Assembly: GCA_016187515.1 (NCBI GenBank)
Contig: JACPJN010000005.1
Coordinates: forward strand, 1-56,390
DNA: 56,390 nt
Direction of reading: 5' to 3'
DNA from: Candidatus Uhrbacteria bacterium
GTDB taxonomy: Bacteria; Patescibacteriota; Patescibacteriia; GWA2-47-26
Numbering within the stretch: the stretch's first letter is position 1; each line of letters begins with the position of its first letter. Made by a program: the position numbers and the translations under genes. The notes under the pieces are model-generated. The model did no database searches. It was not told where the DNA came from and saw nothing but the letters and a program-made list of their open reading frames with translations. Of this stretch, positions 20,367 through 31,389 are shown piece after piece.

Positions 20367-21128
20367 ATGATTATTGGTATTTTAGCGGTTGCCGCGCTTG
20401 TCGCGCTGGGGGTCATGGCTTGGGTCGTGGTTCCGAAATTATCACTGCTATCATCACTGCAAATTGAAGAATCTCCGCGGGAGCGGTGGAGACGCCTTAA
20501 AAAGCATATTGTAATTAGCCGGATGATCAGAAAAGTCAAAGAGCAGTCGACCGAGCTGGAAAAAAGGATATTCAATAAAGAACGCCGAGCGCGGTTTCGC
20601 TTCCGCATCGAAAGCGCGATTGCAAAATTGAGGAAACTGGAGGAAAATTATCGCGAGCAGACCAAGGATCACAAGATTGTAATGCTGTTAAAAAAGGCGG
20701 CCGAGCAGCTGGAGGATAATTCAGAAAGCGCGGAAGAAAAATTTTTGGAGGTGGTGCGGCTTGATCCGCACAATCTTGAGGCCTATGAAGGTCTTTTACA
20801 GATCTATCTTACTCGGAAAAAGCTGGCGGAGGCCTCCGAGATAGTTGATTTTCTAAAGAAAATAAACCCGGCTTCGGTTGGCCGGTACTCCTTTGATCTG
20901 GCAAAGTTGCTGCTGGAAGGAGGGGAGTTTAAAAAAGCCAGGAAGTATGGCGAGCAGGCGCTTAAAGATGAACCGGAAAATCCCAAGTACCTTGATTTTT
21001 TGATTGAGGTTGCTATACTGGGTGGCAAGCGCGGCGAGGCGCAGCAGCACGTGGACAGATTAAGGGAGGTTAACCCGGAGAACGCCAAGATCGTCGAATT
21101 TGAGAGTAGGATCGGGGCATTAAATTAG
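20367..21128 (+). CDS. Membrane-anchored TPR protein
   Basis: N-terminal TM; repeats ending LDPHN..AY, EPENPKY and NPEN. Confidence 0.85.
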   Translation: MIIGILAVAALVALGVMAWVVVPKLSLLSSLQIEESPRERWRRLKKHIVISRMIRKVKEQSTELEKRIFNKERRARFRFRIESAIAKLRKLEENYREQTKDHKIVMLLKKAAEQLEDNSESAEEKFLEVVRLDPHNLEAYEGLLQIYLTRKKLAEASEIVDFLKKINPASVGRYSFDLAKLLLEGGEFKKARKYGEQALKDEPENPKYLDFLIEVAILGGKRGEAQQHVDRLREVNPENAKIVEFESRIGALN

Positions 21129-21129
21129 C

Positions 21130-21204
21130 GCCGTTGTAGCTCAGTGGTAGAGCAACTCCATGGTAAGGAGTAGGTCGCCGGTTCAATCCCGGCCAACGGC
21201 TCCA
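21130..21204 (+). tRNA. tRNA-Thr(GGT)
   Basis: Cloverleaf with GCCGTTG/CAACGGC acceptor stem, anticodon loop ATGGTAA and encoded CCA. Confidence 0.96.
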
Positions 21205-21217
21205 GATAAGCGAGTGT

Positions 21218-21301
21218 GGGCAGGTGGCAGAGCGGTCAAATGCACCTGACTGTAAATCAGGCGCCCCTGTGGCTACCTAGGTTCGAATCCTAGCCTGCCC
21301 A
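21218..21301 (+). tRNA. tRNA-Tyr(GTA)
   Basis: GGGCAGG/CCTGCCC acceptor stem, loop CTGTAAA, long variable arm; CCA not encoded. Confidence 0.95.
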
Positions 21302-21424
21302 ATTTTCTGGTTAGTTTTGTAAAAGCTGAATTCGCGAAGAATTCACTTTTTGGTTTCAGACAAAAAAATACGACCCCACGCACGGTGCATGAGGTCAAGG
21401 AACGATTTACTACTCCTTACTACA

Positions 21425-22192
21425 CTACTCCACGTAGCAGGATTTGTCGTCGTGGTGTTGCTGGTGGGGTTGGCAGGTGCTGTAATCCACGCAGAATTTT
21501 GACCCGCCTTTGTAGTAATCTTCTGGCGAGCAGAGGCGCGGTATGTTGTCTGTACACTCGATGAAATTGCCTTGGGTATTGCGGTAGATCACCGTGACGT
21601 GTGTCTTACCGCGATCACACCACAACTTGCGACTCCAGAATTTACCGGGTGCCTGGCGAGAGAGACAAGTTCGCCCATCAATCTCTCCGGCGGTAGCACA
21701 CGGGCTGTCGCTAAAGGGGCGAGCGTAAGCGCACCAGAACACTTCGCCGCGCTTGGTCACGTAAGGGACTACGCGCGGACATTCCGGCTCCGGCACAGAT
21801 GAGTCCGAGCGGCGCGTACTTTCTCCCGGACCTGGAGTCATGGAGTATTGGCGTGTGTTTGGCGCGTGACATGGAGGCATTATACTTGCCACGAAGAACA
21901 TGGCAAGCAGAATCTCGGTGAGCCGACCGAGTAGCCACATCCGCAATATCCGTTCCACTACGAGTGGCTGCCACCAGGGATCGCGGGGAGTCGGCGCATA
22001 CCTGGTCTCGCACAACCACGCGGCGCGTAGTGCAAGCGTACATGCCAGGAGGATTCCTGTAGTTGTAAGGAGCAGCACCGGCCTCGTATTCCACGACAGG
22101 GCGAACATGATGGCCGTCATTGCCGCAAAGGCAATAGTGAGAATCCGGTAGGACTTTACGTCCGCAGAGGTTGGAGACAGTGTCGTATCCAT
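21425..22192 (-). CDS. Hypothetical membrane protein with a Cys-rich C-terminal domain
   Basis: GGAGG SD, promoter TTGACA-17-TGTAAT (22256..22228), 3 TM, about 10 Cys, and a terminator near 21362..21397. Confidence 0.75.
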   Translation of the reverse strand: MDTTLSPTSADVKSYRILTIAFAAMTAIMFALSWNTRPVLLLTTTGILLACTLALRAAWLCETRYAPTPRDPWWQPLVVERILRMWLLGRLTEILLAMFFVASIMPPCHAPNTRQYSMTPGPGESTRRSDSSVPEPECPRVVPYVTKRGEVFWCAYARPFSDSPCATAGEIDGRTCLSRQAPGKFWSRKLWCDRGKTHVTVIYRNTQGNFIECTDNIPRLCSPEDYYKGGSKFCVDYSTCQPHQQHHDDKSCYVE

Positions 22193-22327
22193 CGGTTATT
22201 CCTCCCTCTTGAGAAGGCCTCGCCCTCATTACAACACGAAAGCTAGCCCTTGTCAAGTGCTGTGCCAACGTGCTATATTACGAAGACAGACAATAGTGAA
22301 ATCTGGATCCCGTGCATTCAGAATTTT

Positions 22328-22390
22328 GCCACCTTAGGGCCGACGCTACGGTCGGTCGGCCGACTGAAACGTCGGCCCTCAATGGTAGAG
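22328..22390 (+). pseudogene. tRNA 5' fragment interrupted by a 40-nt hairpin
   Basis: GCCACCTTAG [insert 22338..22377] CTCAATGGTAGAG. Confidence 0.6.
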
Positions 22391-22403
22391 TCCCGCACCT
22401 TTT

Positions 22404-22477
22404 GCCAACGTAGCTCAGTGGCAGAGCAGCTGTTTTGTCCCCCTGCGGCGGATCACCCGTAGGGTGATAAACAGTAG
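22404..22477 (+). pseudogene. Truncated tRNA-Thr(TGT) with a 30-nt insert in the anticodon loop
   Basis: GCCAACG TA GCTC..GAGC A GCTGT TTTGT [22439..22468] AA ACAGT AG; no T-arm or 3' acceptor strand. Confidence 0.75.
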
Positions 22478-22552
22478 GCCGATGTAGCTCAATGGCAGAG
22501 CAACGCTTTTGTAAAGCGTAGGTTGTCGGTTCAACTCCGACCATCGGCTCCA
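22478..22552 (+). tRNA. tRNA-Thr(TGT)
   Basis: GCCGATG/CATCGGC acceptor stem, loop TTTGTAA, encoded CCA. Confidence 0.96.
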
Positions 22553-22603
22553 GAATCTGACAACCCATGATTCATTATTCCTGATTCATAATTCATTCAA
22601 CGT

Positions 22604-22759
22604 ATGTCCCAAGACAATCTTATCAAGTTCGAATGCACCGTGTGCAAAAAGATAAATTATCACTCCACGAAAAATAAGAAGACGCTCAAGAACCGGCTGG
22701 AACTCAATAAATTCTGCAAGGGGTGCAGGAAGCATACGGGGCATAAAGAAACGAAGTAA
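22604..22759 (+). CDS. rpmG: 50S ribosomal protein L33, zinc-binding type (not in the ORF track)
   Basis: Translated by hand: [51 protein letters not shown]. Confidence 0.96.
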
Positions 22760-22855
22760 ACGGGATAGCCATGGATAGGAGACAGGATAGCCACAGGATC
22801 ACAGATCCGTGATCAGTCGGCCATCCGTCAAAAATCAGTGGCAATCCGTGTTCAC

Positions 22856-23545
22856 ATGAACCCCATTATCAAGATTCTCATTTTCGCGGATTTTTTCGTG
22901 TTTTCCGGTCTGGGGCTGATTAACCCGATTTTTGCGGTTTTTATCAAAGAAGATTTGCGCGGCGCAACGCTGGCCTCGGTCGGCATGGCCGCCACGATTT
23001 TTCTGGTGGTCAAAGCCGTTTTACAGATTCCGATCGCGCGCTTTACTGATCGGGAGCCAGCCAGTTTGCGAGAGTTTTGGACTCTGGTTGTCGGGCAGGG
23101 TATTATCGCGATTGTACCCTTTTTGTATCTCCTAATTGATAGTGTGGGAGAGCTTTATGGCGTGCAAGCGCTTTATGGCCTTGGCGCGGCCTTGGCCTTC
23201 CCCGGCTTTATGGCCATCTTCACCAAATTCGGCGATCATGAAAAAGCCGCGTTTTCTTGGTCGCTGCATAGTACCGTGGTCTTGCTTTCCATGGCCGCTG
23301 CCGCGGGTATTGGCGGATATGTTGGCCAGCACTATGGATTTAGGGTTTTGCTTGTCGGCGTTGGGGCGCTGACTTTTTTGGGATTTTTTACCACGCTTGG
23401 CCTCGCGCTTTTTTACCGCGAATTGAGTAATGAGAAATTAAAAGCGGGCGGTTCATTTTGGAAGCGTTTAGCGTCCGCGCTGCGGCGCAGTAAACAACCG
23501 CCGCCGCCTCCGGCCGCGCTGGCCGGAACAAGTGTTCCGAAATGA
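22856..23545 (+). CDS. Half-size (6 TM) MFS-like transporter
   Basis: GLINPIFAVFI, QIPIARFTDR and YGLGAALAFP motifs. Confidence 0.8.
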   Translation: MNPIIKILIFADFFVFSGLGLINPIFAVFIKEDLRGATLASVGMAATIFLVVKAVLQIPIARFTDREPASLREFWTLVVGQGIIAIVPFLYLLIDSVGELYGVQALYGLGAALAFPGFMAIFTKFGDHEKAAFSWSLHSTVVLLSMAAAAGIGGYVGQHYGFRVLLVGVGALTFLGFFTTLGLALFYRELSNEKLKAGGSFWKRLASALRRSKQPPPPPAALAGTSVPK

Positions 23546-30716: not shown

Positions 30717-30833
30717 ACGATTATAATAATAGAGAAAAAAACGGCCCGCAAAAACATCGCGGTCCATTTTCTTATAAACTGCCCTCGCGATCTTGACGGA
30801 AAGCATAGGAGGCGGTACTATCCTTTTGCTCAC

Positions 30834-31349
30834 AGGGAACTGGATGGTCGCTGCCCCGTGCTTAAGGCGGGGGAGAGGAAAGTCCGGACACCCTCCGCAG
30901 CAATGCGGAGAAAAAGGTACCAGCTAACGGCTGGGCATCTTGACCGGGATAACTCCGACGCTTCGGTCGGAGAAAAACCGGCTGACGGACAGTGCTACAG
31001 AGACCATACTACCCGAGCGTCACCCACTCTCTCCTCCCAGTGTGGGTTAATAGCCCCACTGGTCAGGGTGGCGTTGGGGAAAGGTGAAAAGTGAGGTGGT
31101 GTTGAATTATGTGCTTCGCCCAAAAGGTGGCGCATGTAAAACGGCTACACCTCTTCCCGGCAGGCAACTGTCGCGGAGGAAAACCCTACCTGGTGCAAGG
31201 CCTAGAGCCGCTTGAGCCCAATCGCGAGGTTGGGCCTAGAGGAATGACCGTCGCCTTTTGCGCAGGGCCTTGTTTGGCAAGTATCCGCAAGGATACTTAG
31301 TCAGCCGAAGCTTTGGCAGGAGGAACAGGATCCGGCTTATAGGTTCCTT
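30834..31349 (+). ncRNA. rnpB: RNase P RNA, enlarged (about 515 nt)
   Basis: GAGGAAAGTCC at 30875, CAGTGCTACAGA, AAACCC...GCAAG and ACAGGATCCGGCTTAT; P1 GGAAC/GTTCC; promoter TTGACG-17-TACTAT. Confidence 0.93.
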
Positions 31350-31389
31350 GTGAGCGTTTTTGACGTTTTTCAAACGGAAGGGGAACGGA

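Follow-up and report, generated by a model that had tools for sequence, protein, structure and literature searches.

Integrase islands and prophages leave partial transfer RNA (tRNA) genes at their attachment (att) sites, and archaea have split and intron-bearing tRNA genes. In phage T4, the GIY-YIG nuclease SegB lies in a tRNA cluster and is reported to recognise a conserved motif of the tRNA T-loop and to drive the inheritance of the surrounding tRNA genes (PMC2330249). A report on phage T6 adds that SegB amplifies tRNA-bearing segments and that its homologs co-localise with tRNAs in phages (PMC13096335). Here we analyse positions 22328-22552 of a stretch of 56,390 nucleotides (nt; contig JACPJN010000005.1, assembly GCA_016187515.1; hereafter the window) from Candidatus Uhrbacteria, an ultra-small groundwater bacterium of a candidate-phyla-radiation (CPR) lineage. 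In this region, two broken copies of tRNA-Thr, each interrupted by a small double hairpin, stand directly before an intact tRNA-Thr(TGT) gene. We consider it somewhat probable, with ample room for doubt, that the stack represents the scars of repeated in-place replacement of tRNA-Thr by SegB-like GIY-YIG cassettes, the nuclease gene having since been lost.

The likeness to SegB, which drives replacement of its neighbour's tRNA region, lies in a free-standing GIY-YIG gene placed among tRNA genes; the CPR cassettes found in relatives of the host are also flanked by partial tRNA copies. Unlike SegB, these cassettes are on the bacterial chromosome and not on a phage, their proteins (open reading frames, ORFs, of 80-156 amino acids, aa) give weak, sub-cut-off matches to homing endonucleases, and hairpin mini-elements and inverted-repeat clamps mark the relics. 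The window differs further in holding the wreckage alone, with no nuclease gene on its contig, so a nuclease would be the cause here only by analogy with the relatives.

The features of the window are listed in Table 1. Throughout, G000 denotes the genome of the window and C5 the window contig; other G numbers are relatives, and L numbers are fetched loci. The G000 assembly comprises 1.2 Mb in 10 contigs and encodes a bacterial class A ribonuclease P (RNase P) RNA and a transfer-messenger RNA (tmRNA). An earlier note on this DNA, made from its letters alone, had described two hairpin-disrupted tRNA copies in front of the intact tRNA-Thr(TGT) gene, and the sequence bears this out. Fragment 1 is interrupted in the D-arm by a 40-nt insert that begins GGCCGACG and finishes CGTCGGCC, both as given in that note; fragment 2, as had also been stated, carries a 30-nt insert directly after the TGT anticodon (22439-22468). 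Both fragments are relics, lacking the T-arm and the 3′ acceptor strand. They share base 22404, and the base that follows fragment 2 (22478) is the first of the intact gene, which has the acceptor stem GCCGATG/CATCGGC and an encoded CCA. The difference among the three acceptor stems (GCCACCT, GCCAACG, and GCCGATG) had already been remarked on; these are three alleles and, to judge from them, at least three successive tRNA-Thr alleles have occupied this one site. ARAGORN and Rfam together called three tRNAs in the window (Thr(GGT), Tyr, and Thr(TGT)). Neither fragment was called by ARAGORN or by Rfam cmscan in the region 21000-22800, even at E values up to 10, the permissive Rfam scan being ill-suited to shortened tRNA copies.

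With its insert removed, fragment 2 agreed at 37 of 38 bases with the intact tRNA-Thr(TGT) of a sister genus (G005; positions 8-45 of that gene). Its anticodon stem differs from that of the intact neighbor on both strands, in a compensatory manner that keeps the pairing. Because of this match and these compensatory differences, fragment 2 is, by its sequence, the decayed former resident tRNA-Thr(TGT) of the family; the working gene is recognisable as a different allele. The Tyr-Thr-rpmG locus was compared with that of relatives, as the earlier note had proposed. In G001, G004, and G005, the order is Thr(GGT), Tyr, a CBS-domain-type gene, Thr(TGT), and rpmG, without fragments, and a homolog of fragment 1 was found in G003. 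The intact tRNA, the spacer, and rpmG of the window showed 88% identity to G004, against 77% to G003 and 69% to G005 (for G005 over rpmG), and the left flank showed 77-80% identity to G003, G004, and G005 alike. Import of the right-hand segment (working tRNA to rpmG) by recombination is suggestive only, the segments being short. A metagenome scan for an uninterrupted form of the fragment-2 allele gave 0 matches.

Fragment 1 together with its insert matched two regions of G003, C16:6766-6872 (E = 1.8e-9) and C24:10117-10221 (E = 6.7e-12). The first is the same locus as in the window, directly upstream of tRNA-Thr(TGT) and rpmG. Homologs of fragment 1 also surround the tRNA-Thr(CGT) genes at G003:C24 and G000:C7, and at both of these CGT loci an intact inner tRNA lies within a broken outer one, the homolog being the 5′ part of the latter. 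At the G003 CGT locus, the outer acceptor strands (GCCACCT/AGGTGGC) pair perfectly, and the outer T-loop is split by two hairpins. The inner tRNA-Thr(CGT) is clamped by an inverted repeat beginning CCCCGCACC. This clamp covaries: the arms CCTTAAGC/GCTTAAGG of G000 and CCTTTTGT/ACAAAAGG of G003 are both complementary, and their inner part differs on both arms. In the more distant G039, tRNA-Thr(CGT) is enclosed by this clamp as well. Because the CGT loci show a covarying clamp around the inner tRNA, the TTTTG that ends fragment 1 is assigned to the left arm of an inverted-repeat clamp and not to an anticodon loop. Fragment 2 would once have lain inside such a clamp, whose right arm, like the 3′ relic of the old gene, is gone. 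Fragment 1 is present in both G000 and G003, and no close homolog of the CBS-type gene was found in either, which suggests that fragment 1 predates the split between the two.

A further nested arrangement was read at G003:C16:6380-6770 (L006), where tRNA-Thr(GGT) and tRNA-Tyr each lie within older broken copies. The outer tRNA-Tyr has a T-loop split by two hairpins and no anticodon, and the inner genes have the unusual T-loop TGCAAAT. This T-loop was considered as a mark of nuclease immunity and rejected, a non-canonical T-loop being present in 0 of 15 GIY-YIG-adjacent tRNAs versus 4 of 42 tRNAs of G000. Across G000, tRNA-like pieces (at least 26 bits by BLAST, within ±250 nt) occurred in 11 of 42 tRNA flanks versus 12 of 420 control regions. 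Inspection of the flanks added more nested or relic-bearing genes, among them Leu(CAG), Arg(CCG), Arg(GCG), Val(TAC), and Met. An 83-nt ‘tRNA-Gly(TCC)’ called by ARAGORN at G000:C7:162001-162083 lies inside a tandem repeat of GGAGGGGATTAAGGGGTGG-type units; it is almost certainly false and was dropped.

The connection with nucleases comes from relatives. GIY-YIG genes were surveyed by taking the best match per genome in 30 genomes (29 relatives and G000), and removal of one 773-aa frame left 29 small genes. A tRNA was present in the fetched ±1.5-kb locus of 14 of these 29, whereas a whole tRNA occurs in 7.6% of random 3.2-kb windows of G000, a base rate taken from this single genome. The tRNA lay at a distance of 10-125 nt in 13 of the 14 and on the same strand in all 14, and relics of the same tRNA (BLAST, E < 1e-3) were found at five of the 14 loci. 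The linkage expected of a homing cassette (tight, co-oriented, with partial tRNA copies at the borders) was seen in the relatives, the genomes in which it was looked for. The earlier note had called 5′ remnants notable, integration scars more often duplicating 3′ ends; in the relatives, they are the usual left flank of GIY-YIG cassettes just upstream of tRNA genes.

Several of these loci are built like the window stack or like one of its parts. In L104, positions 1-35 of a tRNA-Glu are followed by a hairpin in the anticodon loop, positions 36-46, a GIY-YIG ORF, and an intact tRNA-Glu, which is the build of fragment 2. L082 has the build of the whole stack, with two stacked hairpin-bearing relics of tRNA-Gln, a GIY-YIG ORF, and an intact tRNA-Gln. 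L086 is a nested form: an old tRNA-Leu contains the ORF and a new tRNA-Leu, which are flanked by 35-nt repeats. In G026, the orthologous cluster contains a GIY-YIG ORF, a 3′ relic whose T-loop bears hairpins, and a tRNA-Thr(TGT) that is clamped and nested. Within the Thr-Tyr-Thr-rpmG cluster, a GIY-YIG ORF was found in G026 and a GIY-YIG-like one in G002, in both cases in front of tRNA-Tyr and not of tRNA-Thr(TGT); none was found in the clusters of G000, G001, G003, G004, and G005.

Elsewhere in G000, a 120-aa GIY-YIG ORF at C4:337037-337430 (minus strand) has perfect 19-bp inverted repeats and is flanked by a 10-nt copy of the 5′ end of tRNA-Ala(GGC) and by the intact tRNA-Ala(GGC). A second GIY-YIG ORF, of 100 aa, at C6:234130-234420 (minus strand) lies between the arms of a 19-bp inverted repeat that has a single mismatch. 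The first 12 bases of this repeat are those of the clamp around tRNA-Leu(CAG) on C4; the repeat also occurs 9-10 nt before the start of the Pfam match in G003 (L107) and, more diverged, in G030 (L103). Inverted repeats around the small GIY-YIG genes exceeded the 99th percentile of cross-paired controls in 7 of 29 cases only, and the idea that they are a general feature of these genes was rejected. Four of the proteins (86-120 aa) were compared with curated families. Their matches to PHROG homing endonucleases had E values of 2e-4 to 8e-4 and were confined to the first 31-37 residues in two of three cases, and the scores against TIGR01453 were 22-24 bits for a cut-off of 56. The four proteins thus fall far below the curated homing-endonuclease cut-offs and were not assigned to a Seg-type family.

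From these comparisons we infer the following order of events. A clamped tRNA-Thr(TGT) (GCCAACG) would have landed inside an old tRNA-Thr (GCCACCT) and split it, leaving fragment 1 and the left clamp arm. A third allele (GCCGATG), today's working gene, would then have displaced the last third of the second gene, the right arm of the clamp, and the 3′ relic of the old gene. Each relic would additionally have received one copy of a dispersed double-hairpin mini-element. The putative driver is a class of small free-standing GIY-YIG cassettes that would settle between a tRNA promoter and its tRNA, duplicate the tRNA or bring a replacement, and later decay, the nuclease gene having been wholly lost at this locus. 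The earlier note had put the palindromic elements first, as the cause of inactivation and replacement. Its dead tRNA-Thr remnants, dispersed palindromic interruptions, and three alleles were all recovered; an insertion of hairpins that preceded and caused the replacement is only one possible order.

Several points weigh against a nuclease-driven history. No GIY-YIG match was obtained on C5, and those of G000 (four at E ≤ 1e-5 and one weaker) are on C3, C4, C6, and C7. The pieces adjoin with junctions of 0 nt, in which no ORF remnant is demonstrable. Among the surveyed genes, the fetched locus lacked a tRNA in 15 of the 29, and BLAST detected no relic at 9 of the 14 that were tRNA-adjacent. In the 30 GIY-YIG loci fetched, the clamp arm CCCGCACC was not found beside a nuclease gene; it occurs five times, at scattered positions that are not paired around the ORF. 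The matches of the cassette proteins to curated homing-endonuclease families are weak and sub-threshold, and the short frames leave little room for a DNA-binding domain, of which none was found and for which no further test was made. The breakpoints of the relics range from position 16 to position 46, with no single cleavage site, and both nuclease cleavage and transcription of the stretch are predictions only. Among the 20 runs listed, none was a holder of RNA.

Both inserts belong to repeat families. Insert 1 is a dispersed two-hairpin unit with copies in G003 (at least four), G004, and G000, and the two-hairpin unit of insert 2 was aligned in 17 of 17 fetched places in five relatives (G010, G029, G032, G039, and G026). 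Many copies within and between genomes, the mark of a dispersed palindromic mini-element, were thus found for both. The units resemble repetitive extragenic palindromes and bacterial interspersed mosaic elements (REP/BIME), miniature inverted-repeat transposable elements (MITEs), and the Rickettsia palindromic elements in being short, GC-rich, multi-copy hairpins within genes or RNA genes and in having no ORF of their own. They differ from elements of that type in consisting of two small tandem hairpins of 30-60 nt, in that some flank GIY-YIG genes as inverted repeats, and in that one module occupies an identical tRNA position (bases 10/11) in several CPR phyla and is near-identical in sequence among them. 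That module, the one in fragment 1, was searched for with the pattern TAG joined directly to GGCCGACGCTnnGGTCGG in one genome per prokaryote species, the TAG context being given by construction. Eleven loci were obtained. Ten of them lie in 5′ tRNA pieces, with the module between bases 10 and 11, and the remaining one is a chance match within a coding gene of an actinobacterium. The ten genomes are labelled as CPR or resemble CPR, from several phyla, and the tRNA pieces have Thr, Ile, Lys, Asp, and Arg identities. At 6 of the 10 loci, an intact tRNA with the same or a near-identical acceptor strand follows 0-60 nt downstream; at 4 of the 11, an ORF with a Pfam GIY-YIG match adjoins the relic.

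Two further occurrences of such hairpins were observed. In a Saccharibacteria record (L074, minus strand from about position 176 downward), a tRNA-Ile(TAT)-like gene carries a double hairpin between bases 10 and 11 and is seemingly complete, with acceptor, anticodon arm, T-arm, and CCA present; it follows directly on a GIY-YIG ORF. In the window, the RNase P RNA match at 30832-31355 extends over 524 nt for a model of 367 positions, and a hairpin unit CCGACGCTTCGGTCGG lies inside it at 30955-30970. Mini-palindromes like insert 1 therefore also appear within the RNA of RNase P, another essential structured RNA gene.

A broader proposal, which we hold only tentatively and think doubtful, is that hairpins, clamps, and small GIY-YIG genes are parts of one CPR mobile system that repeatedly overwrites tRNA genes in place. 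The nuclease-bearing unit bounded by inverted repeats would be its autonomous form. The hairpins in the tRNA motifs of highest conservation, namely the D-arm (between TAG and CTCA), the anticodon loop, and the T-loop (between TTC and GAA), would be non-autonomous derivatives or marks that block re-cleavage, and stacks of relics like that at 22328-22477 would record successive invasions at one essential gene.

Against the cassette history stands plain duplication followed by decay, to which we give a modest chance. Tandem copies, or ectopic recombination between the CGT and TGT genes, would have been followed by 3′ deletions and the acquisition of palindromes, with no endonuclease involved. Genes for tRNAs in G000 are often only 1-3 nt apart (Lys-Lys, Ser-Ser, Pro-Gly, and Phe-Met), and a 30-nt deletion could therefore have brought fragment 2 up against the intact gene. 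The sequence of fragment 1 is common to the tRNA-Thr(CGT) locus, as gene conversion between paralogs would give, and the nuclease gene is absent at the locus. Duplication leaves unexplained, however, why inverted-repeat clamps sit flush with tRNA ends, why identical builds in relatives have a GIY-YIG ORF exactly between relic and tRNA, and why GIY-YIG genes and tRNAs are found together as often as the survey indicated.

Scars of integrase-type islands or prophages that targeted tRNA-Thr and were later excised or deleted would look similar in one respect, since shortened tRNA copies also stand here beside an intact gene of the same identity with differing alleles, and partial tRNA copies next to tRNA genes are their classic signature. 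In addition, a 17-nt direct repeat stretches from the anticodon loop to the variable loop at the tRNA-Thr(CGT) locus. In contrast to att sites, the scars of the window are stacked remnants of tRNA 5′ parts that adjoin with 0-nt spacers and enclose no island; the repeats flanking the nested forms are inverted rather than direct; and the hybrid tRNA expected from a site-specific crossover is at odds with the acceptor strands seen in relic and intact gene. Only two tyrosine-recombinase genes (PF00589) were found, at C3:508 and C7:6201, neither of them near a relic-bearing tRNA. The search for integrase-type att scars, which included tyrosine recombinases of G000 and did not include serine recombinases, gave a negative result. 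Because the relics are 5′ parts without DNA between them and both tyrosine-recombinase genes lie elsewhere, an integrase origin is quite unlikely.

It is more improbable still that the fragments are functional RNA, either as spliced or trans-assembled tRNA halves or as a structured leader that controls tRNA-Thr and rpmG. The region is strongly structured, with z = -5.15 when the genuine tRNA and the palindromes are counted in; fragment 1 has been retained at the corresponding locus of a second genus (G003), and a promoter-like site lies upstream of it. The single T-arm of the genome that is followed by AGGTGGC, on C7, would pair with the acceptor strand of fragment 1. There is also a likeness to archaeal split and intron-bearing tRNAs in the interruptions of the D-arm and just after the anticodon and in the complementary flanks of the halves at nested loci. 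Unlike those genes, the present ones belong to a bacterial host, as its class A RNase P RNA and tmRNA show, the pieces cannot be joined into a cloverleaf, and an intact gene of the same identity is always alongside. Fragment 1 has no 5′ strand of an anticodon stem, and fragment 2 has no 3′ partner, none of the four exact matches to its CGTTGGC pattern being a T-arm. The closest relatives at the locus (G004, G005, and G001) lack fragments altogether, and the outer tRNA-Tyr of G003 is devoid of an anticodon. The sole T-arm with AGGTGGC is itself the relic on C7, which leaves the genome without a usable 3′ partner; a split or trans-assembled tRNA was accordingly rejected, and assembly of the fragments in trans into a working tRNA is excluded on these sequences.

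The earlier note had named misassembly as a finding that would refute it, and the layout was reproduced in contigs of runs X1, X2, X3, and X5 with no sign of it. A single Logan contig of run X2 covers 22100-22800 (701 nt) with 0 differences, and overlapping Logan contigs of X1 and X3 cross both junctions. Run X5, from a separate study, contains 22178-22370 and 22445-22625, again with 0 differences. Runs X1-X3 are possibly the source data and hence not independent, whereas X5 and the layout of G003 are. Metagenome bins can be mis-joined at tRNA genes and numerous foreign contigs stack on 22478-22552, but with the X2 contig spanning the whole region, both junctions bridged in X1 and X3, and agreement on both sides in X5 and in the homologous G003 layout, a collapse or chimera among similar tRNA genes is scarcely credible.

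Genes for tRNAs are among the most conserved and essential of genes, and here layered wreckage of one of them is kept in a streamlined genome of 1.2 Mb. Literature searches found no paper that deals with either nested tRNA genes or GIY-YIG/tRNA cassettes in CPR bacteria. If nuclease cassettes do cause such relics, they would be a chromosomal counterpart of the phage SegB system, and would help to explain the strong variation of tRNA alleles between CPR genera, the many partial tRNA genes that tRNA finders meet in CPR genomes, and the tiny palindromes inside structured RNA genes. A practical warning follows for annotation, as fragments of this kind can be mistaken for split or intron-bearing tRNAs.

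Table 1. Coordinates of the tRNA-Thr stack and of neighboring features in the window.
Feature	Position	Strand	Remarks
tRNA-Thr(GGT)	21130-21204	+	ARAGORN, Rfam
tRNA-Tyr	21217-21302	+	ARAGORN, Rfam
255-aa ORF	21425-22192	-	No Pfam family; no match in five family members
Sigma-70-like promoter, predicted	22250-22279	+	TTGTCA, 18 nt, TATATT; TG before the -10 element
Fragment 1	22328-22404	+	5′ relic of old tRNA-Thr
Fragment 1, acceptor strand GCCACCT	22328-22334	+	Sequence read
Fragment 1, TA and G	22335-22336 and 22337	+	Sequence read
Insert 1, 40-nt double hairpin	22338-22377 (22338-22357 and 22358-22377)	+	Between tRNA positions 10 and 11
Fragment 1, remaining D-arm CTC AATGGTA GAGT	22378-22391	+	Sequence read
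Fragment 1, end CCCGCACCTTTTG	22392-22404	+	Left arm of inverted-repeat clamp
Fragment 2	22404-22477	+	tRNA-Thr(TGT) positions 1-45, ending in the variable loop
Fragment 2, acceptor strand GCCAACG	22404-22410	+	Followed by a normal D-arm
Fragment 2, anticodon stem GCTGT	22429-22433	+	Followed by TTTGT
Insert 2, 30-nt double hairpin	22439-22468	+	Between anticodon base 36 and base 37
Fragment 2, tail AA, ACAGT, AG	AG at 22476-22477	+	ACAGT is the 3′ strand of the anticodon stem
Intact tRNA-Thr(TGT)	22478-22552	+	ARAGORN; Rfam RF00005, 73.6 bits
rpmG (ribosomal protein L33)	22604-22759	+	ORF; G003 ortholog matches Pfam Ribosomal_L33; conserved downstream neighbor by synteny

The predicted promoter matches the consensus at 10 of 12 positions and ends 48 nt upstream of fragment 1; the region 21000-22900 has five promoter-like sites, against 1.3 expected from shuffles. 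Because of this site, both fragments probably amount to no more than 5′ leader sequence in the transcript of the working tRNA. The Thr(GGT) and Tyr genes at 21130-21302 (plus strand) open the conserved cluster that continues to the second tRNA-Thr and rpmG. Between the two parts lies the lineage-specific ORF of 255 aa, whose N-terminal half is hydrophobic and whose C-terminal half is rich in cysteine, in the place that the CBS-domain-type gene (a type read from its sequence) has in G001, G004, and G005. The cluster of G002 (L052, C17 at about 26060-25950) is rearranged in order. Its GIY-YIG-like ORF runs into tRNA-Tyr, and a 14-nt copy of the 3′ end of tRNA-Thr(GGT) (GGTCAACGGCTCCA) stands about 60 nt downstream, just before rpmG. 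In the window, the gap between the working tRNA and rpmG contains an AT-rich segment (22561-22598) with many short matches in G003, G004, and G005 and elsewhere in G000, which could represent either a common promoter or leader motif or a further repeat family.

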